DNA of 64,000 nucleotides from Candidatus Bathyarchaeota archaeon (GCA_963697165.1 CAVOMX010000024.1:1-64000), one strand, 5' to 3'. Counted from the first letter of the stretch, positions 28,967-42,837 are shown. Numbers and translations: made by a program. The notes: generated from the sequence alone by a model not told the origin.

Positions 28967-30511
28967 ATGAGTGAAGGCGAAAGGTTACAAAAAGCCGTTT
29001 CCTTCACAATAGAATCAGGATACCAACTGGAAAAAGAGGCTTTCGAATTTTTGAATGCAGTAGCTAAAACAGAAGACCCGCTCTACTTAATGGAAGAAGC
29101 TGTCAGGAAAATCAGAGATTTACCTCAAAAGCCTCTGTTTATAGACCGAGTTTTTCTGGAGGCTATGAAAAGAGAGCCTTGTGTTGAAGAAGAAAAAGCT
29201 ATTCAAATCAATTCAGTGTCAACCACTTCGGAATCAAGGAAGACTTTTAGACCGTACGCTAAAGATGTTGAAGGTGAAATAAAAGTTCTCATGGATCCAA
29301 CAAAAAAAATATGCACAACAGGCACCATCAATGAATATCTGGAATACTTTCAAGACAGGTTTGAAAGGTTAAAGAAGATTCTTAGAAAAAGAATGGATGT
29401 AAAAAATGCGGTACCCATATCGGTTGCACTAAAGGCGCCGACCAAATCAAAGGTCAACATCATAGGTATGGTCACGGAAAAAATAGAGTCTAAAGAAAGA
29501 CTCTTCGTGAAAATCGAGGATCTAGAATCAAGCGCCACCGTACTCGTGTCTCCAAACTTAAGCAAGGAAATTATAGAAAAAGCCCGTTCTCTACTCTTAG
29601 ACCAAGTTATTTGTGTAAACGCGATAAAAGGAAACAACGACCTACTTATCGCAAAAGACTTCATCCTACCCGAGGTGCCACAGAAGACACCCCACAAAGC
29701 CTCAATCCCAGTCTATGCGGCTCTAATGTCGGACATTCATATTGGAAGCAAAAAATTTATGGAAAAAGAATTCAACCAATTTCTACGGTGGCTAAAAGGA
29801 GAAAAAGGCAACGAAAAACTCAGAAACATCGCCAGTCACACAAAATATTTGGTAATAGCAGGCGACATTGTAGACGGAATAGGAATATACCCAGGGCAGA
29901 TGGAAGAGCTAGCGATAACAGACATTTATGAACAGTACCGTGAAGCAGCAAAACTTCTTGAACAGGTTCCGGAACATGTTGAAATAATAATTATTCCCGG
30001 CAACCATGATGCATCTAGAAAGGCATTACCACAACCTGCAATACCCAAAGAGTACGCAGAACCGCTATACGAAACCCATAAAATATATTCGCTTGGAAGC
30101 CCATCCACAGTCAGCCTCCACGGAGTGGAGGTACTTCTATTTCACGGACGGAGCTTAGATGACGTCGCTGCTGTTGCCCCAAACGTCAGTTTCGATACCC
30201 CCGACAAATCGATGAAGCTTTTGTTACAGGGCAGGCACCTTGCGCCCATTTACGGGGAAAGAACACCCATTGCCCCAGAAAAACGGGATTTTATGGTTAT
30301 AGAGAGAACACCGGACATCTTCCACGCTGGACACGTTCATGTCCTAAAATGTAACAATTACAGGGGAACACTCATTGTGAACTCAGGGGCGTGGCAAGAA
30401 CAAACAGATTTTCAACAAAAAATGGGGCTTGTTCCTACCCCTGGAATCGTGCCTGTAGTAAACCTCCAAACATCTATGATTTCAACAATAAATTTTACGG
30501 AACCTTGGTGA
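28967..30511 (+). CDS. DNA polymerase D small subunit DP1
   Basis: SDIHIGS, AGDIVDGIGIYPGQ, PGNHD, HLAPIYG, GHVH, NSGAWQ. Confidence 0.97.
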   Translation: MSEGERLQKAVSFTIESGYQLEKEAFEFLNAVAKTEDPLYLMEEAVRKIRDLPQKPLFIDRVFLEAMKREPCVEEEKAIQINSVSTTSESRKTFRPYAKDVEGEIKVLMDPTKKICTTGTINEYLEYFQDRFERLKKILRKRMDVKNAVPISVALKAPTKSKVNIIGMVTEKIESKERLFVKIEDLESSATVLVSPNLSKEIIEKARSLLLDQVICVNAIKGNNDLLIAKDFILPEVPQKTPHKASIPVYAALMSDIHIGSKKFMEKEFNQFLRWLKGEKGNEKLRNIASHTKYLVIAGDIVDGIGIYPGQMEELAITDIYEQYREAAKLLEQVPEHVEIIIIPGNHDASRKALPQPAIPKEYAEPLYETHKIYSLGSPSTVSLHGVEVLLFHGRSLDDVAAVAPNVSFDTPDKSMKLLLQGRHLAPIYGERTPIAPEKRDFMVIERTPDIFHAGHVHVLKCNNYRGTLIVNSGAWQEQTDFQQKMGLVPTPGIVPVVNLQTSMISTINFTEPW

Positions 30512-30551
30512 ACACCCAACAAAAAAGATGGTTAGCCCTTTTTCAAATTCA

Positions 30552-31787
30552 TTAAACGCCAGCAAAACAGTTAGGGACGTAGCCTAACAGCTCCCGGAAT
30601 CGGTCATTGTTCGTGAACACGTTCCTGATAAGACTACGTCCTATGCCTAAACGGATTTTTTTTGTACGCCCATGTCGACCCATGCTCACAACACGTGCGT
30701 TTAATAATCCAATCATGTCTAACTCGCTGATTAGACCACTTACCCGTCTCTGAGTCAGCGGCGAGAGACCAGATTGATCACAGAGTTCACAGTATATTCC
30801 GTAGATGTCTCCGGTGATTGTGTAACTAATTTTTGTCCTCCCCAACAGATAAACACTGCACAAGACTAATTTGGAGTGCACAGGAAGATTTTCTAAAACC
30901 TCCACGATTCGATCATGTTCCACACGCTTTTCTGCCTGTCGCACATTATCTTCGCTAACACATTCTGCACCCTCCCGTTCTGCTAATTCGCCTGCAACAC
31001 GAAGAAGGTCTAAAGCTCGTCTGGCATCACCGTGCTCTGCGGCAGCCAACGCAGCGCACAAGGCCACAGCACTATCTAGAAGAGCACCTTCAGAAAACGC
31101 TAGTTGAGCACGTCTCCAGAGGATGTCTTGGAGTTCAGCTGCATCGTAAGGTCTAAAAACTATCTCTTCTTCGCTTAAGGAACTTAGAACCCGTGGATCC
31201 AAAAACTCCTTGAATCGGAGGTCGTTTGAGATTCCTATTATGGATGTTCGGCCGTGAAGAAGAGTCTCATTTACTCTGGTTAATTCGTAGAGCAGGGTGT
31301 CGCCACGAGCTTTTATCAGAGCATCGATTTCGTCGAGGACAACGATGAAGATTTTTCTTTGTTTTTCTAGACCCTCTTTGAATCGGTCAAAGACTTCTCC
31401 GACAGCCAAACCTGTGAAAGGAACCTTCACATCTAAAGCGTCACATAAGCTTGAGAGAACTCGGTATTCAGTGCCAGCCAAACGGCAGTTTACGTAACAA
31501 AATTCAATATCGGCTCCCAGTTCATGTGCCTTAGAGGATAGTTTATTCAAGACGTATTTGGTGACTGCTGTTTTTCCGGTTCCAGTTTTTCCGTAAATGA
31601 AGGCATTGGAGCAGGGAGAACCTCTCAGGACGGGTGCAACTATTCCGCCTAAACAATTAATCTGTTTATCGCGGTGCGGTAGTTTGTCTGGGATATAATC
31701 ATGGCGTAATACTTCTCGGTCTTTGAAAATGTGGGTATTACTCAGAAAACGATCGAAAACGTCTTCAAGAGTATCAATTTTGGTCAG
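30552..31787 (-). CDS. cdc6: Orc1/Cdc6 replication initiator
   Basis: The frame stays open upstream of the track ORF and includes YIPDKLPHR and Walker A GKTGTGKT; LDEID, GDARRALDLL, C-terminal wHTH with GRHGRTK. Confidence 0.97.
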   Translation of the reverse strand: MTKIDTLEDVFDRFLSNTHIFKDREVLRHDYIPDKLPHRDKQINCLGGIVAPVLRGSPCSNAFIYGKTGTGKTAVTKYVLNKLSSKAHELGADIEFCYVNCRLAGTEYRVLSSLCDALDVKVPFTGLAVGEVFDRFKEGLEKQRKIFIVVLDEIDALIKARGDTLLYELTRVNETLLHGRTSIIGISNDLRFKEFLDPRVLSSLSEEEIVFRPYDAAELQDILWRRAQLAFSEGALLDSAVALCAALAAAEHGDARRALDLLRVAGELAEREGAECVSEDNVRQAEKRVEHDRIVEVLENLPVHSKLVLCSVYLLGRTKISYTITGDIYGIYCELCDQSGLSPLTQRRVSGLISELDMIGLLNARVVSMGRHGRTKKIRLGIGRSLIRNVFTNNDRFRELLGYVPNCFAGV

Positions 31788-31966
31788 TCTGGTAATCTCC
31801 TCTAAGAGGTAGTGAAATTATTGCCTCGATTGTGTTTCCAGTAGATAAAAACTCTCATAAAAAAAAATAGACAGTTTGCACAAAAAACTAAAGGGAGACA
31901 AAAATTTCTAGGTAAAAGCGGTTTTAGGTTGTTTGTAGATGTTGAAGAGGGATTACAGACTCCCGC

Positions 31967-31988
31967 ACCCCTGTATTTCTCATGGAAA
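31967..31988 (-). promoter_or_regulatory. ORB element
   Basis: Reverse complement reads TTTCCATGAGAAATACAGGGGT. Confidence 0.75.
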
Positions 31989-32176
31989 AAGTAAGGTTTC
32001 TGCACGATTTATTTCAGAAAAGAATAAAATTTACAAAGTAATTATTATTAAAGAAAAAAATCTCTCAGACATTATTTCTCAATTTAGTATTTATTATTAG
32101 TCATCAAAAAAATTAGATCTAATTCTACATTTTTTTAACTTTAAGGCTTAACAGAAATCCTAACCGAACTTCTTTG

Positions 32177-32197
32177 ATACAATGGAAATGAAGGGGT
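32177..32197 (+). promoter_or_regulatory. ORB element
   Basis: ATACAATGGAAATGAAGGGGT. Confidence 0.75.
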
Positions 32198-32254
32198 CGG
32201 AGTCCTAATCAAAACTTTTGAAACCAAACCGTATCTTCTTGAGACACACTAACT

Positions 32255-32602
32255 GTTAATTGACGAAGAGTCTTCCTTATTTACTTGTTAACTTGGTTGT
32301 TAACTTTGCTGTGAACTCTTGTGAAATTAACTAGTAGATTTCATGTTTTTTGCTGTTTATTCTGGAAAATAGGCTCGATTATGTCTTTTCACGAGTATAG
32401 AAGCCACCCCTTGGTTTCTACTGGAAAACAGGATTCGTTCCTTTCTCTTTTTTTATTTTGTAAACGTGAACTGTAGTGAAGCTTGTGAACCTAATACGCT
32501 TGCAATTTTTGGTTTTTTTGGATTTTTAGGCATTTTTAGAGCTTTTTCACTGGACACTATCTACCACAATATCTATAACTTGTGAATAGTTAATTAGTGA
32601 AA
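32255..32602 (+). repeat. Phased GT(G/T)AA short direct repeats within oriC
   Basis: Copies at 32255, 32287, 32299, 32311, 32321, 32466, 32476, 32485, 32582, 32589 and 32597. Confidence 0.65.
32406..32427 (-). promoter_or_regulatory. ORB element
   Basis: Reverse complement reads TTTCCAGTAGAAACCAAGGGGT, close to the ORB consensus. Confidence 0.85.
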
Positions 32603-32620
32603 CACTAACTGGTGCGTGGC

Positions 32621-33031
32621 ATGCCTACCAAAAAAATGCGCGTAGAGATCTTCAATAATGGAGATCGTTACACGATAACCTTTGAGGGTCAGGTTACGCG
32701 AGATAAGGCTCTTCGTCTACTTGATTTGGTTGAACTTTTGGGAGGAATGCCAACCGTAAACCCTGAAACAGCTCGCTCTGCATCTGAAATATCTAAGATA
32801 GAGAAAGTTCGTTTAGTTGCGGAGAAAAATTTTCCTGTTGGCTGGTTTTCTTCAAAAGAATTACAGTCGGCGTATGAAAAGCAGTTTACTGAACCAATCC
32901 GTTTGAGTACAGCCTCAACTTATCTGTCTCGTCTAGCAGATAGGGGGTTCTTCATTAAAAAAGGCGCTTCAAATCAACTACGTTACAGAATTATGACTGC
33001 AATATCAAACTATCAGGTTCATGAAAGATAA
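32621..33031 (+). CDS. Origin-adjacent winged-helix protein
   Basis: C-terminal WFSSKELQSAYEKQF..PIRLSTASTYLSRLADRG wHTH; short N-terminal beta/alpha domain. Confidence 0.8.
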   Translation: MPTKKMRVEIFNNGDRYTITFEGQVTRDKALRLLDLVELLGGMPTVNPETARSASEISKIEKVRLVAEKNFPVGWFSSKELQSAYEKQFTEPIRLSTASTYLSRLADRGFFIKKGASNQLRYRIMTAISNYQVHER

Positions 33032-33108
33032 TAAATAGCCTGTCTTTTAAGATAGTTAATTTAGCGCTGAATTGTAAGACTCTTCGTGTTTGAGGAGAAA
33101 ACCTGCAT

Positions 33109-34140
33109 ATGGGTAAAATTCAAGAAGATTTGGTTGAGCTGAAAAACAAGCTTAAGTCATATGTTGATAAGGGTCGCCAAATAGGCTACGGCGATATTAA
33201 GCCGCAACCGCTGATTGTCACTAAACCTGACATGACTAAAATTAAGCCTCTAAAGAAGGTTAAACGCTGTGATTCACGGTTTTTGGCTGTGGACTGCTCT
33301 ACTAGAATTTTGAAGAGAGCCCACAACTGGGGCATTTACCTAATGCGTGTTGCGTACGCTTCTGTGGAGAACCGCAAAGTTAATTGGGGCTACGATGAAA
33401 GCATCGTAAGTGCAGTTGGGGACCGCCGTTACCGTTCTAACTTTTTGATGGACCGAAGGCTGCAACTAGAAAGTGAGATGGCTATGAAACTTCTTCACGA
33501 AGAGCCTACCGGGGATGTAGAGCCACATGGGAAGACTCTTCGTGGATTATGTGAGGGCGATTATGTTTTGTTAGATGGTGCTAGTTTTTTTGGGGGAAAA
33601 CGAGGGTTTCATACGTCGCTATACGAAGAGGCTCTTCGTAAAAAGGTTAATCTTCTCGCCGTAAGTAAACAATCTCCTATGTTGTGTGATGAGAAGGGAC
33701 GAGATTTTATGGCATCAACAAGTATTTTGTCACAATATCCTCTTTGGGTTTATCATCCGGTTAAAGAGGCAAATATGGCTGAGCATCTGTATGGTGATGT
33801 GTCTCTTGTGAAGTTGTGTGAAGATAGTCAACATGTCTTCCGTTGTGACATAATGGATTCTTTAACCTCTAGTGACGTGTCCGAGTTCCTTTCTCCCCTT
33901 ACATCGCTTTCCGAAGACCCCCGATGTTTAGGTTACCCTGTTACTCTTTGGCTAGCTCATGAATTTTCTGGAGCATCAAACTCAAAAATTCTTCAATATT
34001 ATGATTTAATTGAGAAAACACTGTCTGCTGATGGACTCTTAGAGACTCTTCGTAGGGAAGAGCTTTCCTGCAGTTTTGCTGACAAGATTCATGGAATAAC
34101 TAATCCTTATGAGGGTGGTGAAGGTTTTGACCGAATTTGA
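33109..34140 (+). CDS. NurA-family nuclease
   Basis: FLAVDCS, VLLDGA, LAVSK, GYPVTLWLAHE; overlaps the herA-like gene. Confidence 0.8.
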   Translation: MGKIQEDLVELKNKLKSYVDKGRQIGYGDIKPQPLIVTKPDMTKIKPLKKVKRCDSRFLAVDCSTRILKRAHNWGIYLMRVAYASVENRKVNWGYDESIVSAVGDRRYRSNFLMDRRLQLESEMAMKLLHEEPTGDVEPHGKTLRGLCEGDYVLLDGASFFGGKRGFHTSLYEEALRKKVNLLAVSKQSPMLCDEKGRDFMASTSILSQYPLWVYHPVKEANMAEHLYGDVSLVKLCEDSQHVFRCDIMDSLTSSDVSEFLSPLTSLSEDPRCLGYPVTLWLAHEFSGASNSKILQYYDLIEKTLSADGLLETLRREELSCSFADKIHGITNPYEGGEGFDRI

Positions 34141-35692
34141 GCCTGTTGGGTTTGTTCGCGAAGTGAAAGGGGACAAAATCTCTTTTTTCCTAAATCAGGG
34201 AGTAACTCTTTCTTTTGGTCAGATTGTCCGAATAGATTCTGATAACCGGAGCTTCTATGCGCGTGTCGTAGATGCTGGGAGTTCCTCTACGCTGAAAACT
34301 AATGAGCAGCTTCGTGAAGCTGAGGGAAAAGAGTCTTTTGGGCCTTACTCCAGCTTTAGGCACGTCGATGCAGTTCTGTTGCTTGAAAGTAACGCTGGGA
34401 AGATACGTTCTCCAACTTTTAACCCTAATTATATGGATCATGTATTTACAACAAACGAGGAAGACTACTCGATTTTGCGGCTTTCGGGCGATTTAGAGAT
34501 AGGTCTTTTGCGTTCAGGAGAAGAGGTTCTGGGCGAGGTAGGAATTAGTGTTAAGGCTATCCCGAAGATGATGGGCATGTTCGGAATGACCGGCTCAGGA
34601 AAAACCAACACCGAACTTATTCTAAACGCGCGTATAATCGATAACCCTGAAACTGTTGGTCTTATCTTCGATTTCGCCGGTCAGTTGCTGTCAGGAAAGG
34701 ACATTGGGTCTGAGAGTGGTCTAGGGGATCACCCTCTTTTTCATAGTAAGGTTCGTTACTATTCCGCGAGAGATGGCAAACTATGCATCGGCTTGCGTAC
34801 TCTTACTCCTGGAAGGTTATGGACGCTTTTTCCTGAAATTGGGAGACCCCAAATACGAGTTGCCCGGAGATTGTATGAGCAACTGGGCAACTGTTGGATA
34901 GAGGAATCCCGTGAAGCCTACATTTTAGAGGGCTACTTAGGTGTTGGCAAAATCATCAACTACAAATCTTCGAACGTAATTAATGCTTTGATGAGTAGGC
35001 TTTCCGACCTTCCGCCGCATCTCTTCCCGCCTTCCAACTATAACTTCATAGAAGATGTGGTCCAAAACATAAGCAAAGGAATTACGTGCCTCATTGACAT
35101 ATCAGGCTTAACTTCTGAAGAGCAACAAAACGTCACCTGTCTAACAGCGACAAGCGTTGCACAGCATTATAAGCTGTTGTGGGAAAACAAATTCGAAGAA
35201 TGGAAAAAGCTCCCAACTCTGTTGATCACTCTGGAAGAGGCTCACGAGTTTCTTGATCCCGAAATACGCAAAACCATCTTTTCTAACATCGCCCTAACAT
35301 ACCGTAAATATCGTGTCGGCTTAAACGCTGTAACTCCAAGGCCTTCAAAAATAAATCGTGACGTTTTCGCCGAGCTTTGGACCAAAGTCATCATGAAGAC
35401 CGAGCTTAAACGAGACCGGGATTATCTAACCCAAAATACGCCTTACATGGAATACAGTGACACCGAAATTAAAATGCTTGACATCGGAGAAGCATTACTT
35501 ATTTCAGAGCCGCAGATTCGGTTCGCGGTTCCTATCAAAGTTATTCATTACCCTGATTATCTACAGCAGCGGGGAACTGTGGAGTATGATTTGGCGCCCT
35601 CAAAGCCTCTTTCTGAAATGGATGAGAAACTGAAACGAATCAAAGCTGCCGGAGAGTCTCTTGCGGCTGAAGAAAGGTCTAGGAAACGCTAG
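34109..35692 (+). CDS. HerA/FtsK-family ATPase (HAS barrel plus ATPase)
   Basis: N-terminal HAS-barrel-like region, Walker A GMTGSGKTN, IFDFAGQ, Walker B LITLEEAH, YRKYRVGL...TPRPS. Confidence 0.88.
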   Translation: MRVVKVLTEFEPVGFVREVKGDKISFFLNQGVTLSFGQIVRIDSDNRSFYARVVDAGSSSTLKTNEQLREAEGKESFGPYSSFRHVDAVLLLESNAGKIRSPTFNPNYMDHVFTTNEEDYSILRLSGDLEIGLLRSGEEVLGEVGISVKAIPKMMGMFGMTGSGKTNTELILNARIIDNPETVGLIFDFAGQLLSGKDIGSESGLGDHPLFHSKVRYYSARDGKLCIGLRTLTPGRLWTLFPEIGRPQIRVARRLYEQLGNCWIEESREAYILEGYLGVGKIINYKSSNVINALMSRLSDLPPHLFPPSNYNFIEDVVQNISKGITCLIDISGLTSEEQQNVTCLTATSVAQHYKLLWENKFEEWKKLPTLLITLEEAHEFLDPEIRKTIFSNIALTYRKYRVGLNAVTPRPSKINRDVFAELWTKVIMKTELKRDRDYLTQNTPYMEYSDTEIKMLDIGEALLISEPQIRFAVPIKVIHYPDYLQQRGTVEYDLAPSKPLSEMDEKLKRIKAAGESLAAEERSRKR

Positions 35693-36392
35693 CTTCTCTT
35701 TTTTTTAGTATCTTTTGCATCTCTTCTTTTAATCGATAGACATAAGGCATCTTATGGGTGTCTCTTTCCATATACCCGTCTTTGTATAGCTTCTTCATTA
35801 GACGCGCAGTGTGCTCTCTTGTGAGACCAATCTTTTCTCTTATTTCAGGCGCCGTTTTTTCTCCCTCTTTACCAATTGTTTCGAGGACCATAAGCTCGGT
35901 TTCAGTCAGTGGTTCCAAGGCTTTTTCCTTTCTTATTGGAATGGCCGCCTCTATCTGCATCTCAGGAACATAAGCCTCTTTCTTGATTTTCTCGATCTCA
36001 ACAAGCTTTTTCATAACTTTGTCTTGGGCTTCCTTTATGCCTACAACCTCGTTGCGCATCTCTTTAAGTTGTCCAGAAACCTTTTCTTCAATATGCGGAA
36101 CATCAGCCATTAGCCTAGTAATATCCGTTAATCGTCCCTCGTATTCCTCTACCTTTTCTACGACTTTTTTGTTCTCCAACAAGGCGTTCTCCATCTTCTG
36201 GGCAACAAAAAGAACCCTGTCCTTTTGCCTCCTGAATTGGCTGTCAACACTCACAACTATGTCATCTACAACTCCTTTTGCCCTGTCGTACTCTTGGCGC
36301 AGAGTCATTATTCGGCGATAATAAAGAAATATTGCCGAAATTGTGCCAAATAACAGAACCGACGTCACCACTAACATGAAGTCTGAACTCAC
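35679..36392 (-). CDS. Membrane-anchored coiled-coil winged-helix protein
   Basis: N-terminal TM (LVVTSVLLFGTISAIFLYY then RR), ~110-aa E/K-rich heptad region, C-terminal LTETELMVLETI...TAPEIREKIGLTREHTARLMKKLYKDGY wHTH. Confidence 0.85.
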   Translation of the reverse strand: MSSDFMLVVTSVLLFGTISAIFLYYRRIMTLRQEYDRAKGVVDDIVVSVDSQFRRQKDRVLFVAQKMENALLENKKVVEKVEEYEGRLTDITRLMADVPHIEEKVSGQLKEMRNEVVGIKEAQDKVMKKLVEIEKIKKEAYVPEMQIEAAIPIRKEKALEPLTETELMVLETIGKEGEKTAPEIREKIGLTREHTARLMKKLYKDGYMERDTHKMPYVYRLKEEMQKILKKREASVS

Positions 36393-36404
36393 TAACTCAG
36401 CTCC

Positions 36405-36521
36405 TCACATGTGATTTCAACGTGATGCCGTGTGATATGCATATGTAATCACACATCACAATAGTATATAAACAAACTTAAAGTTTTTCCTAAATTCTGC
36501 ATCGTGACATCACACGTCACA
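36405..36521. repeat. GTGA/TCAC array 1
   Basis: TCACATGTGA, CGTGAT, TGTGAT, ATCACA x2, GTGACATCAC, GTCACA. Confidence 0.8.
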
Positions 36522-36746
36522 AACGCCTCATAGCGAAGCTTCGGTGAAAGTGTGCTAGCCGACATTACCCCTCACTTTTTTCTCCCCCTCTACTTTTACA
36601 TTCCGCTACTAAAAACTGTCTAAAACACCCTAATTTTTGTAACAGGCTCTAAAATGGGCTTAAATTGTTGCGCAAAACTTTCTGTTGTTTGAGTGTTTGG
36701 AGCTGCCCTGTTTATGGGTTTTGTCTGGGCACAAGTGGCTATTTTT

Positions 36747-36778
36747 TGTGATAAAATGGCTGTGATTTGTGATGTCAC
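36747..36778. repeat. GTGA/TCAC array 2
   Basis: TGTGAT x3 ending in GTGATGTCAC. Confidence 0.75.
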
Positions 36779-37252
36779 GGTCTTTTTGATATTTTTCGGG
36801 GGTTGGTGAGTTCTTCTAGACTGTCTTTGAGCTCTTCGTGGAGTTGTGCCACTGGTCCTGATGTGTTCTTCTTTTGGCATCTTTTTCGCAAGTTCTCGTT
36901 GAGTGTTTATGTACGTTTTTAGCTTGTTTGCTGCCTCTAAATATGGTTCTAGGCTGATTTCTTCGAGAATTCCTAGGTATCCTAGGAGCAGAATTGTGTA
37001 GATTGATTGGGTAACATTCTGTCTGGCTTGCCTTAAACTCCTGTTAAACGCGCCCCTGCTTACGGCTAAAATCCGTAATTTGGCTTTTTCGTCATATTTT
37101 AGGCTTTTATCGGATATATTTTCTGCTAAAACGTCTATTAGAAGAGTTTCTATCTGTATTTTGGTTAAATTGCTGTTTTTTGAAAGTATTTTTACCAACG
37201 GGTCATTTAATGAGTAATTTAGCCAATTTTGGGCCTTTTCCTTCAAGTTCAA
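36775..37252 (-). CDS. Tfx/sigma70-region-4-like HTH protein (3' frameshift; true stop about 36775)
   Basis: SNLTKIQIETL...YDEKAKLR..VSRGAFNRSLRQARQNV resembles Tfx; alternate frame ends VAQLHEELKDSLEELTNPRKISKRP*. Confidence 0.7.
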
Positions 37253-37608
37253 ACTCTATACTCCAACCCCTGTTCCAAAGGATACAATTTCGTATACCAC
37301 ACCCTGCAATAAAAAACTTTACCATAACTAACCCAAAAAAAGCCCATGCTATTAATTTTTCTTCAATTACTAAAAAACAAATAAAATACTAACAAAAACT
37401 TCAATAAACTACATAAAAATACACTTAAAGAATTATTCAATCACTAAAAAATAACGGAACATTCCCTTGCATTTTATTGGAAAACTTTGCTTTAACCCAA
37501 AATCTGCTGGCGACGCCTCAATTAACTGCGTTAGGCTCTCTCCAGTGGGCTAATTACTCCCTCCAAAAGTCAACTCTTTACTCTATATCTGTGCTATCTT
37601 TGCAGTTT

Positions 37609-37830
37609 TGTGACCTTGTGATTTACCAGCTATGTGATTTCTTATCACAGTTGAATCACGTGTGATTATCACAGAATCACGTGTGACCTCACGCGCAACC
37701 CCCATTCTAAAATAGTCCGTTTTTGGACTATTTTCTGTTTTAACTCGTTTTTTGGGCTTTTCTAATGTGATGTTATGGTGTAGTGCCTGTTCTTTTGTGA
37801 TTCTTTTGATGTCACATGAAACCCCATCAC
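37609..37830. repeat. GTGA/TCAC array 3 with internal 10-bp inverted repeat
   Basis: GAATCACGTGTGA twice (37653, 37674), multiple TGTGAY/ATCACA copies; AAAATAGTCC-N6-GGACTATTTT at 37709-37734. Confidence 0.85.
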
Positions 37831-38329
37831 TACCGTAGATTGATGGAAATCAGACGCGTTAGTTAATGTAGGCACTGTTGTTAATTGGCTGAAGGTCAAA
37901 TCCGAAGTTTTTGAGGCGAATTCTACGTGCTTAACCTCATCAAACCGCGATGTTTTCTCATCGGGCATTGAGCTACTTTAACACGCTGACGCATAATGGG
38001 CTGAGCAAACTGATGTGACTGGTCTGCGGACTCCACATTAATTCCATAAAAACAATCCAAAAATTAGTGTTTACACATATAATTGTCGATAGAATGTTGA
38101 TTGTGATTTATATCGATAACGTTTCTATTATTCAACACATCGTTCATAGATTTCGTTTTGCTGGTCCCTGTTTTTGTTCTCAAGTTCCCTTTTCATGACC
38201 TTTTTTTCTCTTGATTTAGCGTTTTCACTTATGCTTTTAGGACAAATATTTAAGCTATTGTTGAATTATAATTTGAAACAAGTATCTTAATCACAGAGTT
38301 AAACCGATTCATGTCACAGGGGCTTTGAA

Positions 38330-38569
38330 ATGGGCAGAAGAAGAAGAAAAGTTGTTCATATACCTAAAAAGAAGTTGCCTACTGTTTACCTCTGTCCTAG
38401 GTGCGGCAAACAATCAATTAATGTTGAAATATTTCCTGGCGGTGAACACGCTAAAGTGCGGTGTGGTAGTTGTGAATTAACAGAGGAATTGGATACTAGG
38501 CCTGCTTTTAGGGAGATTGACATATACTGTCAATTCACGGACCTTTTTTATTCAAGATTGGCGGTCTAG
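38330..38569 (+). CDS. elf1: Transcription elongation factor Elf1
   Basis: MGRRRRK...LPTVYLCPRCG...CGSC...IDIYCQFTD. Confidence 0.9.
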   Translation: MGRRRRKVVHIPKKKLPTVYLCPRCGKQSINVEIFPGGEHAKVRCGSCELTEELDTRPAFREIDIYCQFTDLFYSRLAV

Positions 38570-38583
38570 TTAAGGGATCAAAT

Positions 38584-39342
38584 ATGGTTGGTCGAGTAGA
38601 AAAATATCTCTTAGAGAAGATCGCGAAAGAGGGAACCATTCACATGACTCTTGTTGATCCAGAAAAGGTTACGCCATCGTCTGCCTCCCGTATAGCTAAA
38701 GATGCTGAATCTTGTGATACAGCGGCTATAATGGTGGGCGGTTCAACTTCTGTTTCTGGTTCTCATCTGGATAAAGTTACAAAAGCTCTGAAAGATGCTG
38801 TGAAAATACCTGTAATCCTTTTCCCTAACAACATCACTGGAATAACCCGACATGCTGACGCTATCTGGTTCATGTCTCTCCTTAATTCTGCAGACCCATA
38901 CTTTATTATGGGCGCTCAAGTCTTAGGCGCCCCCATCATCAAAAAATTCGGTTTGGAACCTATTTCTCTCGGCTACATCATTGTGGGTGAGGGAGGCACG
39001 GTTAGTGTCGTGGGAAAAGCCATTCCTATCCCATACAACAAACCTGAACTTGCAGCTGCCCATGCACTAGCAGCCGAATATTTTGGTATGCGCTTCGTAT
39101 ACTTAGAAGCAGGATCCGGAGTCGGAAACCCCGTGCCCGCTGATATGGTAAGAGCGGTCAAGAATGTAACTAATCTTCCCTTAATTGTAGGCGGCGGTAT
39201 ACGAACCGGTGAACAGGTGAAAGATATAGTGAAAGCTGGCGCCAGCATTGTTGTAACTGGTAATGTTCTGGAGGAAAACAAAGGGAAAAGCAAGATAACA
39301 GAACTGGTAGACAACATGAAAGCCCACAAAATAACGCGTTAA
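38584..39342 (+). CDS. Geranylgeranylglyceryl phosphate synthase
   Basis: HMTLVDPEK, MVGGST, LFPNNI, YLEAGSG, VGGGIR. Confidence 0.95.
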   Translation: MVGRVEKYLLEKIAKEGTIHMTLVDPEKVTPSSASRIAKDAESCDTAAIMVGGSTSVSGSHLDKVTKALKDAVKIPVILFPNNITGITRHADAIWFMSLLNSADPYFIMGAQVLGAPIIKKFGLEPISLGYIIVGEGGTVSVVGKAIPIPYNKPELAAAHALAAEYFGMRFVYLEAGSGVGNPVPADMVRAVKNVTNLPLIVGGGIRTGEQVKDIVKAGASIVVTGNVLEENKGKSKITELVDNMKAHKITR

Positions 39343-39422
39343 AACATTGTTCTGTTTTACATTGTTTGTTTTTAGAAAAGCTCAATACCTTGCTTCGTGA
39401 GAATTAGGTAAGGAGAACGATT

Positions 39423-42400
39423 TTGCCGATCCCGATGAGCGAAGAGTACAAGCAGTATGCTGATTCTTTGGAGAAAAGCCTTGAGAGCATATATGCTGTA
39501 GCGAGAGAGGCGCGGAAAAAAGGGTTAGACCCTGCTATCGTTCCCGAACCTGAGGTTGCAAATGACTTAGCTGAACTAGTAGAAGGGCTTGTTGGTCCTC
39601 CTGGGGTCGCTAAGGGCATACGCGATTTGAGTGAGAAGATGTCTCGAGAGGCGCTCACCTTCAAAATTACTGAACAGATCATAAATGGAAAATTTGGTGT
39701 CATGGATGCCCGTGAAGCCGCTGAACAGGCAATGAGAACTGCTCTTGCGATATTAACTGAAGGAATAACCGCGGCTCCTATACAAGGCATTGCTAAGGTA
39801 GAAATAAAAACTAATCCTGATCGGACAAACTACTTGGCGATATACTATGCTGGTCCAATACGTTCAGCCGGTGGCACAGAACAAGCCTTAACAATAATAG
39901 TTGGTGATCACATTCGTCGCCTGCTCAAGCTGGATCGATACAAACCAACAGAAGAAGAAATTTGTCGTTTCATAGAAGAAGTGCGGCTGTTTGAACGGGC
40001 TATCGCCAGATTTCAGTATCACATCTCAGACGAAGAGTTACGAAGAGCCATACCGAACATCCCCGTGGAGGTAACCGGCACCGAATCAGACCCCGTTGAA
40101 GTTTCGTCCTTCCGGAACCTCCCTCGAATCGAAACAAACAATGTTCGGGGCGGAGCTCTCAGAGTTGTAAACGATGGAATAGTTGGACGAGCATCAAAAG
40201 TATTAACCACTATCGAGAAACTCCAGATTGATGGCTGGGAATGGCTTGGAGGCCTAAAAGAGTTCTCGAAGAAAAAGAAAGCCGGATTCATGGAAGACGT
40301 CATAGCTGGGCGCCCAATTTTCTCGTTTCCATCTAGATTTGGAGGCTTCAGGCTTCGCTACGGAAGATCCCGAAACACAGGACTTGCAGCGGTCGGTATA
40401 CACCCCGCCACCATGATGGTTGTCCAGAATTTTCTTGCCGCTGGAACCCAGCTTCGTTTAGAGGGTCCAGGAAAAGGCGGGATTACTGTTCCGGTTGATA
40501 GTATTGAGCCTCCTATTGTGCGCTTAAAAAACGGGTCTGTTGTGCGTGTTACTCTCCAGAATTTTGCTCAAATTGAGAAACTGATTGACAGAATTCTGTT
40601 TCTTGGAGACATCCTGATTGGATTTGGCGACTTTCTATACACCAATAAGCCTCTTCGTCCGTCTGGCTACAACGAAGAGTGGTGGCATGAAGAGCTTGTG
40701 GTAGCACTTGACCAGAAGTTTGGTTCTGACTTGAAGGAAGCCACAAAAGCTGTTGGTTTGTCTACTTCGCGTCTTGATGACCTTTTAGCTGATCCCTTCA
40801 AGAATAAGCCAAACGCGAAGGAAGCCATTGCTCTTTCTTCTGTTTTCGGGATTCCGCTTACATCCTTTCTTCACCTTTTTCTGGGAGAATGTTTCCCTTG
40901 AAGAGTTTGGGGTTTTAAGAAACTGGCTGTTAACCTCTAAGACGAAAGTTGAAGATGCAGTGGTTAAAGAGATTGTTGGCTTGAAAGATAAAGCGGCGAA
41001 GAGTATCCTTGATAAACTCTGTATTCCCCACAATGTGATCGCAAACAGTATCCTCATAAAAGATGATGAGGCGCACATTCTCGCTTTTTGTCTCGGATTG
41101 AACGCACCTGACCGTATAGTAGACTCTTCGGGAAGCATTTTTGAGCATATACAGAAGTTCACGGGTGTTTCGATTAGGGCAAAGGCTCCCAGCTTTGTGG
41201 GCGCCAGAATGGGGCGCCCTGAGAAGGCTAAACATAGAGAAATGAAGCCGCTTGTTCATTCTCTATTTCCTGTTGGGCTTGCTGGTGGTTCCCGACGTAA
41301 TCTCTCTGAGGCTTCTACTAATGCTTCGATTGAAGTTGATATTGTGAGGCGTCACTGCATAAAGTGTAATGGTTTAACTTTTCTAATTCGTTGCCCTACC
41401 TGTGGCTCAGATACTGTTTTGGAGAAGTTTTGTCCTCAGTGCGGGAGATGCTTTAAAAGAGGATGCTTGTCCTGTCTGTAAATCTTCAACCAGAAGTTAT
41501 GCTCAGACAGCAGGTTGACATACGGTCTTTGATGTCTTTGGCTTGCAGAAATCTGGGACTTCATATGCCTAGCCTTGTGAAAGGTGTAAAAGGCATGACA
41601 AACGAAACGAAGACACCAGAGATTCTAGAGAAGGGGATTCTGCGGGCTAAACATGGTTTATCGGTCTTCAAGGACGGAACAATTCGTTTCGATGTTACGA
41701 ATGCTCCTCTTACCCATTTTACTCCTAAAGAGATTGGCGTCTCTGTTGAGCAGCTTCGATTGAATGGTTACCTGCATGACTATGAAGGAAATCCTTTAAC
41801 TGAGCCTGACCAGATTTGCGAGCTTAGGGTGCAGGATATAGTTATTCCCCGTAACTGTGGAGACTATTTTATTCATGTTGCAGCCTTTCTGGATGAACTG
41901 CTTGAGAAAATATACGAGCTTCCTCCTTACTACAAAATCGAAAAAGCCGCCGATCTAATTGGGCGCATCATTGTCGGTTTGGCGCCACACACCTCAGTTG
42001 GCATCGTCGGAAGGATTATCGGTTTTACTCCCCTGAAGGTCTGTTACGCTCATCCTCTGTGGCATTCAGCGAAACGTAGAGACTGTGACGGCGACGAGGA
42101 TGCATTGATGCTGGCTTTGGATACAATCCTGAATTTCTCTAAAGTCTTTCTGCCCTCTCATATAGGAGGAATAATGGATGCTCCTATCCTGATTATCCCA
42201 ATCGTGAATCCTATGGAAGTGCAACGGCAAGCTCACGAAGTTGATGTTGCAGGAAAGTATCCGCTACTGTTTTACGAAAAAACTTTGCGAACAGGCAGAC
42301 CCCCGACAAACAAGCACAATAATTGATACAATTGAAAATCGGTTGAACACTCCAGCTCAGTTTGAGGGCTTCAAATACACTATTCCTGTTTCGAACGTCA

Positions 42401-42837
42401 ACATGGGCAACTCCGAAAGCATATACAAAAAATTTGGAAAAATGACCGACAAACTACACAGCCAACTAGTTTTGGCGGAAAAGATCGAAGCTGTAGACGC
42501 CGACGTAGTTGCTAGAAAGGTTCTGACCACACATTTTGTGCGCGACATCGCTGGAAACCTAAGAGCCTTTACCACTCAAAAGTTTCGTTGCAAAGGCTGT
42601 AACAAAAAGTTCAGAAGAATGCCTCTTCTAGGCAAGTGTCCTGCATGTAAGAGTGATCTGATTCTTACTGTGTACCGTGGAGGGATTGAGAAGTATTTGC
42701 CCGCGGCGACTCAGCTCGTTAAGAAGTATGGTCTTCCTGAGTATTATGCTCAGAGGCTTTCTATGGTGGAAGAGGAAATCTTGACTTTGTTTGAGGGCAA
42801 GAAGCCTAGGCAGAGCAGTCTCGCCTCCTTTTCATGA
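39423..42837 (+). CDS. DNA polymerase D large subunit DP2 (three frameshifts; no intein seen)
   Basis: YAGPIRSAGGT, GGFRLRYGRSRNTG, GARMGRPEKA, HSAKRRDCDGDED, C-terminal CxxC pairs and PIP-like QSSLASF. Confidence 0.97.

Follow-up and report, generated by a model that had tools for sequence, protein, structure and literature searches.

Three bacterial proteins are the closest described counterparts of the archaeal protein reported here. RicO of Staphylococcus aureus is described as binding nine ricS sites spread over about 700 kb around oriC and as reaching the membrane via a C-terminal amphipathic helix (bioRxiv 10.64898/2026.03.06.710092), RocS of Streptococcus pneumoniae is presented as a protein used for chromosome segregation (PMC11500499), and RacA of Bacillus subtilis is described as docking on DNA in an adjustable way and anchoring the chromosome (PMC4914108). 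How chromosomes are positioned and segregated in most archaea is an open question; in its accessible sections, a 2024 cell-cycle review names only SegAB and ParA/ParB homologues for archaea (PMC7617429). Here we describe a concrete single-copy candidate from a stretch of 64,000 nucleotides, hereafter the window, of Candidatus Bathyarchaeota archaeon (GCA_963697165.1, CAVOMX010000024.1:1-64000), whose genome is 1.99 Mb long and 81% complete. The gene (35679..36392, minus strand) encodes a 237-amino-acid (aa) protein (P0001) with a predicted membrane helix, coiled coil and winged helix, and it is surrounded by about 20 TGTGAY half-sites within about 1.4 kb, 4-5 kb from a predicted oriC. We put the probability that this protein is a sequence-specific anchor of the origin-proximal chromosome at the membrane at roughly 50%.

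The open reading frame (ORF) starts with GTG, GAGGAG lies 8 nt 5' of this start, and a search of the genome with the protein gave one match, i.e. the gene is single-copy. A single transmembrane (TM) helix is predicted at residues ~5-25, followed by YYRR (36318..36380, minus strand), and was called from Kyte-Doolittle hydropathy and charge rather than by a dedicated TM predictor. The hydrophobic 19-mer scores 2.39 in the window protein and at least 1.85 in 30/30 aligned homologues, in all of which it begins at residue 1-6 and the best later segment reaches at most 1.21. Given that there is almost no lysine or arginine before the helix (mean 0.03) and a mean of 4.4 in the 15 residues after it, the sequence predicts an N-out/C-in topology with only about 4 residues outside and no outside domain. 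The helix is followed by a predicted coiled-coil stalk (residues 28-139; 35976..36311, minus strand) with a hydrophobic periodicity peak of 3.50 across its 112 aa, corresponding to ~16.6 nm at 1.48 Å per residue, by a low-confidence and likely flexible linker (residues 140-155; 35928..35975, minus strand) and by a winged-helix domain (residues 162-236; 35685..35909, minus strand) supported by Pfam, AlphaFold2 and Foldseek. The AlphaFold2 monomer (predicted local distance difference test, pLDDT, 83.7; predicted template-modelling score, pTM, 0.33) is helical at residues 2-96 and 98-139; residues 140-155 form a loop of low confidence, and the winged helix spans 164-236. The head is more conserved than the distal coil, with column identities of 0.77 and 0.37, respectively. 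A preliminary description of the locus had proposed an N-terminal hydrophobic helix followed by RR, about 110 aa of coiled coil and a C-terminal winged helix-turn-helix (wHTH), with no outside sensor domain, and all of these features were recovered.

The recognition helix carries a triad, R192, E193 and R197 (35802..35819, minus strand), in register with R180, E181 and R185 of CRP. The pattern RE[HY]xxR was found in 77/77 homologues counted, and among 37 phylum-wide sequences with a mean column identity of 23% the only invariant columns were R192, E193, R197, K200, R210 and Y219. The head of one homologue aligned without gaps, at a weak E value of about 1, to residues 173-197 of E. coli CAP with R, E and R on 180, 181 and 185, and the same homologue scored over the Pfam Crp helix-turn-helix (HTH) cut-off; the window protein itself matched HTH_Crp_2 at E 0.0037, under the cut-off. 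In CAP, the TGTGA half-site is described as being read by R180ETVGR185 (PMC11253593), and specificity in the CRP/FNR family is reported to be largely set by the triad (PMC2677863). By analogy, the winged-helix heads likely read TGTGAY half-sites.

Such half-sites are densely clustered at the locus. Array 1 (36410..36521) comprises 8 TGTGAY/RTCACR half-sites, counted as YGTGAY/RTCACR, on both sides of the gene's B recognition element (BRE)/TATA-like element (36477..36490, minus strand), which was recognised by eye and is conserved in homologous intergenic regions. Array 2 (36747..36779) comprises 4 half-sites and overlaps the true stop codon of up158, the upstream gene. Array 3 (37609..37687) comprises 9 half-sites and is all that survives of an aminotransferase gene which relatives carry intact at the corresponding position. 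In the 1.99 Mb genome, array 1 and array 3 are the only clusters of at least 6 half-sites, the next largest having 5, 4 and 4 (the last being array 2), and five shuffled genomes contained no cluster of at least 5. The preliminary description was right to place an array upstream of the gene, but its unit, GTGA-N2-TCAC, is only the commonest pairing of a TGTGAY half-site that occurs in mixed orientations and spacings, including 7-bp direct repeats and 10-11-bp repeats. A half-site cluster lies just 5' of the gene start in 39/39 loci of the same order, and half-site enrichment around the gene in six locus groups was 7.2x (39 loci), 7.0x (7 loci), 6.3x, 4.8x, 2.7x and 4.8x, where the last group consists of 12 TM-less loci from families in which up158 was not found; the genomes are kin and not independent, so that these fold values are descriptive and overstated.

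The half-sites also lie within coding sequence, an uncommon position for operators. The aminotransferase gene carries 4-7 half-sites mid-gene in 9/12 loci holding it, compared with 0.2-1.2 expected from synonymous resampling, and in 7/7 loci of family f19 half-sites lie inside the wHTH codons of the protein's own gene (for both, the windows were selected post hoc). The aminotransferase gene no longer exists in the window, where the array at 37632-37673 is all that still matches the coding sequence of six relatives (77-85% over 27-44 nt). Selection has kept the half-sites for their own sake.

Three loci of the same class (L158, L159 and L163) have kept cdc6, the origin boxes, wH139 (an origin-side winged-helix gene) and up158 and lack both the gene (two genomes checked by a broad profile, one by a narrow profile) and the cluster, with a half-site density of 0.65x versus 6.3-9.2x, and ten other loci with up158 and no nearby gene showed an enrichment of 1.31x. 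The origin-side GTKAA motif remains in the three gene-less loci. Since the cluster is missing there while the GTKAA motif stays, the arrays go with the gene for the 237-aa protein. By the same observation the GTKAA motif was rejected as a candidate site of this protein. Five further homologues were found outside the 77, three of which have the first R of the triad changed, and these three have no array cluster. The CRP triad analogy and the co-loss of arrays and gene together suggest that the heads bind the arrays, and the non-specific DNA binding that the preliminary description had named as a possible objection is not what these sequences point to.

The gene is also linked to the replication origin. 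The predicted oriC (31967..32426) consists of three ORB (origin recognition box)-like boxes around an AT-rich stretch (31967-31987, minus strand; 32177-32197, plus strand; 32406-32426, minus strand), lies between the orc1/cdc6 initiator gene (30552..31799, minus strand) and wH139, and is the sole such cluster in the 81%-complete genome. The boxes were scored with a matrix trained on 54 sites from relatives, after a seed consensus which we take to represent the ORB box. Inverted boxes around AT-rich DNA beside the initiator gene are described as the standard layout of archaeal origins (PMC4010727), and origin activity is predicted between cdc6 and wH139. The nearest ORB box is 3,253 bp from the end of the gene for the 237-aa protein, in agreement with the distance of less than 4 kb given in the preliminary description.

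At the order level the gene was matched in 53/61 genomes, and cdc6 lies 1.1-4.0 kb from it in 36/39 loci, the remaining loci being cut by contig ends (two) or separated (one, in genome G024). At the phylum level 162/301 genomes have a match at E<=1e-8, including 45/45 in f19, and 38 of these distant loci were inspected. An ORB match was found at most 1.7 kb from the gene start in 31/38 loci, compared with 0 matches in 642 kb of shuffled DNA, and 10 of the 31 loci have no cdc6 in at least 7.6 kb examined on both sides. The gene therefore follows the ORB boxes and not cdc6, and its homologues are not scattered away from origins, an outcome that the preliminary description had named as refuting its proposal.

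The reading that best accounts for these findings is a protein that anchors the origin region at the membrane. The N-terminal helix would hold the protein in the membrane, the predicted ~17 nm stalk would oligomerise it, and heads on loose linkers could accept mixed half-site spacings, so that many heads on about 20 half-sites might form a high-avidity focus. Co-translational insertion beside its own gene could let the protein capture nearby half-sites. Because array 1 brackets the gene's TATA-like box, the protein likely represses its own promoter whichever reading holds, and on the anchor reading this repression would be a side effect; in partition systems, the centromere can overlap the operon promoter. 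That the purpose is to position or segregate new origins is the least supported part of the proposal.

Several observations weigh against an anchor. Among the 38 distant homologues 22 have the hydrophobic helix and 16 do not, so that the helix seen in the preliminary description is conserved in the 30 aligned homologues and not in the whole family. Eleven of the 16 TM-less homologues form one clade (100/100) that retains origin linkage and arrays, and on a poorly resolved 73-column tree four changes of the membrane-helix label are needed; since TM-less forms keep both linkage and arrays, the membrane anchor is, judging from these sequences, not the conserved core. The source cluster names of anchored forms include Nitrosopumilus and Caldarchaeum (homologue P0123 is named Nitrosopumilus maritimus by NCBI) and those of TM-less forms include Methanosuratincola and Culexarchaeum. 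Seven of the 38 distant loci (L108, L112-L115, L125 and L128) have no ORB match in the examined stretch, four of them membrane-anchored short forms (L112-L115). In G024 the block is broken inside nurA (L051 / L052) and the gene and arrays lie ~525 kb from cdc6 and oriC, due either to a rearrangement (inversion) or to an assembly error. The gene was not found in the whole families f27 (0/20), f20 (0/14) and f33 (0/11), and it has been lost within Bathyarchaeia. When a broader profile was applied to single genomes from f27, f33, f20 and f28, none contained a convincing match to the head; one weak hit was obtained in G165. One homologue (L169) has the triad and no array cluster, array 1 straddles the gene's own TATA-like box, and the half-sites are all within ~1.4 kb compared with about 700 kb for the nine sites of RicO. 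No SegA-like partner was seen near the locus and no ParA family was among the conserved neighbours; the best of four AAA_31 hits in the window's own genome, the only one examined, was CooC-like by eye. Finally, in five rearranged loci (L116-L118, L124 and L127) in which the gene and up158 have become separated, the arrays remained next to up158, which may thus share the half-sites. It is because of the TM-less clade, the four anchored short forms without a nearby origin, G024 and the many losses that we put the odds for an anchor no higher.

The strongest alternative, which we nevertheless regard as rather unlikely, is that the protein is a membrane-tethered local transcription regulator and that it binds the arrays solely in order to repress its own gene and up158 or to loop them. 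The helix and coil would then sense membrane state or set availability (e.g. by proteolysis), and the origin linkage would reflect gene dosage or cell-cycle timing. The flanking of the TATA-like box by array 1 in the order-level loci, the bracketing of up158 (a Tfx/sigma4-like HTH gene) by the arrays, a head that scores over the MarR and TrmB cut-offs and resembles MarR regulators, the existence of TM-less forms and the retention of gene and arrays far from oriC in G024 would all fit such a regulator. However, arrays lie mid-gene and after stop codons and one has outlived its host gene, there is no sensor domain outside the membrane, and a tethered protein that controls only itself and one neighbour is hard to justify.

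No regulon outside the locus was found in four genomes examined. In the single-contig genomes G005, G024 and G033 all 6 exact palindromes are at the locus, as are the triple patterns except for one site in G005 and one 9 kb off in G033, and G233 and G067 contain no strict palindrome; each has one distant site with the triple pattern, and G067 has another one close to the gene. TGTGA-N6-TCACA occurs 12 times in the window genome (16.6 expected), once in an intergenic region. Scattered GTGA-N2-TCAC sites (27 versus 16.6 expected, about seven of them in a dispersed repeat) were rejected as a regulon, and the four far-away clusters examined in other genomes indicate no shared target. The dispersed repeat is ~60 bp long, with a GTGA-N2-TCAC core followed by a C-run and a T-run, and has about seven intergenic copies, some of them located behind tRNA-like remnants (window ~1950-2040; C6:21950, C6:61699, C10:15197, 18863, 24716, C17:83164, C25:170215). 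A second small repeat is found at C2:3486, C6:42423 and C19:40146. G033 also has an extra dense array (L179:2968-3085), 9 kb away from the gene, behind a nitrilase/nadE block that is located beyond the origin.

An origin control or organisation module appears improbable. Here the protein, wH139 and up158 would assemble into a nucleoprotein complex next to oriC, which would set the timing of initiation, sequester it or insulate the origin; the coil would serve as an arm for protein-protein contacts, and the membrane helix would have been added in particular lineages. The gene does track the ORB boxes with or without the membrane helix, its neighbours are cdc6 and both PolD subunits, and wH139 lies between the gene and the ORBs in 26/38 distant loci and has a motif of its own in the origin region that persists without the gene; still, the intergenic region between cdc6 and wH139 shows no excess of GTGAY sites (0-2 per locus) and intact origin blocks without the gene exist. 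That the arrays are mainly those of up158 or of an up158 complex, with the membrane protein binding DNA loosely or elsewhere, is very improbable: the arrays did follow up158 in the five rearranged loci, but the 13 loci with up158 and no nearby gene have enrichments of only 0.65x and 1.31x, arrays persist at 4.8x where up158 was not found, and the three homologues with a changed first R of the triad have no cluster.

The gene order conserved in the 39 order-level loci is DP1, cdc6, oriC, wH139, optional nurA-herA, the gene for the 237-aa protein, up158, a variable stretch, elf1, GGGP synthase and DP2. wH139 (32612..33031, plus strand) is uncharacterised, has a small N-terminal domain and a winged helix, and is convergent with the gene for the 237-aa protein in most relatives. 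On either side of the ORB and of the wH139 promoter there is a third class of motif, TGTGAA / GTTAAC (32230-32610 in the window, and upstream of wH139 in relatives), and since this motif persists where the membrane protein has been lost, wH139 is its likely binder. nurA-herA (33109..35692, plus strand) is a variable insert between wH139 and the gene, outside the core module; it is missing from about a quarter of the order-level loci, and herA overlaps the 3' end of the gene by 14 nt. The upstream gene up158 (36775..37252, minus strand) encodes a sigma4/Tfx-like HTH protein of ~158 aa in relatives, and has one extra base in the window compared with L069, giving a frameshifted 210-aa ORF at 36620-37252. 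Other window genes are also in pieces, including DP2 (39423-42837) and trp genes near 44.5-46 kb, suggesting assembly indels. Fold searches with up158 gave weak sigma4-like matches and generic helical hairpins (Z<=8), and a sequence search of the PDB gave no match for wH139 or up158. Among distant loci, a gene for a ~590-aa multi-pass membrane protein (F12) lies at most 6 kb from 10 TM-less homologues (L109-L111, L121 and L131-L136) and near no anchored one, which makes it a candidate membrane partner of TM-less forms. In 13 loci a Fis-like HTH gene (F7) lies across the origin or close to it, and 14 loci have an HTH-CBS gene (F5) nearby.

A different motif, ACGAAGAG(T/C)CT, is enriched around the origin (14 versus 0.92 expected in 12 kb; 29501-40679 in the window, densest at 32263-34053), and a perfect palindrome lies at 33623-33639. 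The motif is confined to genus g1, and the single-contig genomes G005 and G033 have 23 copies (10 of them in 104-168 kb around the oriC at ~115 kb) and 1 copy, respectively. The ACGAAGAG motif was rejected as the site of the 237-aa protein: the 13 full-length loci of genus g1 have 10-17 copies per 19 kb and the other order-level genera 0-4, while the recognition helix is invariant. It shares the AGA-S-TCT core reported for SegB sites (bioRxiv 10.1101/2025.02.07.637068); no SegA-like gene was recognised, and no search for SegB was made.

With respect to family membership, Pfam MarR (PF01047) matched residues 162-213 over the cut-off (E 9e-8; 32.3 bits versus 24.6), Pfam TrmB (PF01978) matched the head over the cut-off (E 2.6e-6), and no NCBIfam model reached its cut-off for the 237-aa protein. 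In Foldseek the top-ranked matches were MarR proteins, with AspA, which binds the centromere of an archaeal plasmid, in third place (E 6e-4); the template-modelling score over the query was at most 0.30. A PDB sequence search with the homologue alignment gave generic coiled coils and weak wHTH matches, and the ESM Atlas matches were hypothetical or MarR-labelled archaeal clusters only. In a 50%-identity protein library with nameless entries 748 proteins matched at E<=1e-10, and a scan of named genomes using one divergent homologue gave one locus. Contigs from RNA libraries of three studies overlap pieces of the gene and up158, a weak indication to which contaminating DNA may contribute.

No paper on the 237-aa protein was found in the open-licence literature (supplementary tables such as arCOG lists were outside the search), and such a protein is not mentioned in the accessible text of PMC12139799, bioRxiv 10.1101/2025.02.07.637068, PMC7617429 and PMC11188069; it is real, conserved and apparently undescribed in print. 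We tentatively propose that it may be the first archaeal chromosome-to-membrane anchor, an ancestral origin-linked centromere system of much of Thermoproteota (Bathyarchaeia, ammonia oxidisers, Methanomethylicia and related groups) in which a winged helix with the CRP code, carried on a coiled-coil stalk, would capture an array in cis, next to its own gene and to oriC. Anchoring would be direct in some lineages and via a partner in others, and the system would replace SegAB where that is missing. The candidate occurs in over half of the phylum sample, cultured ammonia oxidisers among them, and offers a predicted site, three residues predicted to read bases, and natural knock-outs. Either outcome would be new, i.e. 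an archaeal origin anchor that evolved independently of RicO, RocS and RacA or a conserved origin-linked regulatory circuit.

Compared with known systems, the protein shares the R-E-x-x-x-R triad and the TGTGA half-site with CRP/FNR, but residues 2-139 form a helical coil in the AlphaFold2 model with no Pfam match to a cyclic-nucleotide domain, and its sites have neither N6 spacing nor a dispersed regulon. The likeness to MarR, TrmB and AspA is that of the head fold, and the matches are generic, restricted to the head and none has a membrane helix and long coil. MarR proteins are compact, soluble dimers of ~140 aa with a ligand pocket, whereas here the PF01047 winged helix is joined to a membrane helix and a 112-residue coil. 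TrmB proteins combine a wHTH with a C-terminal effector-binding domain; the present chain ends 15 residues after the PF01978 match and has no such domain. ToxR/CadC proteins have an N-terminal cytoplasmic wHTH, a single TM helix and a C-terminal outside sensor domain, i.e. the reverse of the topology predicted here with its ~4 outside residues, as the preliminary description had already concluded. SegAB of the Sulfolobales, from the same phylum, is similar in its centromere-binding function, which is a candidate function here; however, SegB is described as a ribbon-helix-helix protein with a ParA partner, a different site and no membrane anchor (bioRxiv 10.1101/2025.02.07.637068, PMC12139799), unlike the winged helix of the window protein. 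By the features tested the protein is not a member of CRP, MarR, TrmB, ToxR/CadC or SegB.

No RicO, RocS or RacA family was among the Pfam and NCBIfam matches. The likeness to these proteins is at the level of prediction: an HTH, a coiled coil and a membrane attachment are combined in one protein and the candidate sites are confined to the origin region. The domain order, an N-terminal head with a C-terminal amphipathic helix or DivIVA-binding coil in those proteins, is reversed here, with a hydrophobic helix of at least 19 residues. RicO, as described from Firmicutes (bioRxiv 10.64898/2026.03.06.710092), runs from head to coil to C-terminal amphipathic helix and has nine sites over ~700 kb, compared with a predicted transmembrane anchor and ~20 half-sites in ~1.4 kb around the gene itself. 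RocS likewise joins a DNA-binding domain, an oligomerising coiled coil and a membrane anchor in one chain, but its amphipathic C-terminal helix is reported to need multivalency (PMC11500499) and it is thought to bind DNA by topology (bioRxiv 10.64898/2026.03.06.710092), whereas the window protein has a hydrophobic N-terminal helix and looks sequence-specific. RacA similarly has a winged helix joined by a disordered region to a coiled coil, and differs in having no anchor of its own (it binds DivIVA), in its GC-rich sites and in being sporulation-specific (PMC4914108). The preliminary description had suggested a RacA-like tether with its own anchor; the anchor is borne out by prediction, and RicO and RocS, with their own anchors and origin-proximal sites, are closer models than RacA, although with reversed domain order and with sites over hundreds of kb compared with ~1.4 kb here. 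For the 16 TM-less homologues, RacA is the better analogue.

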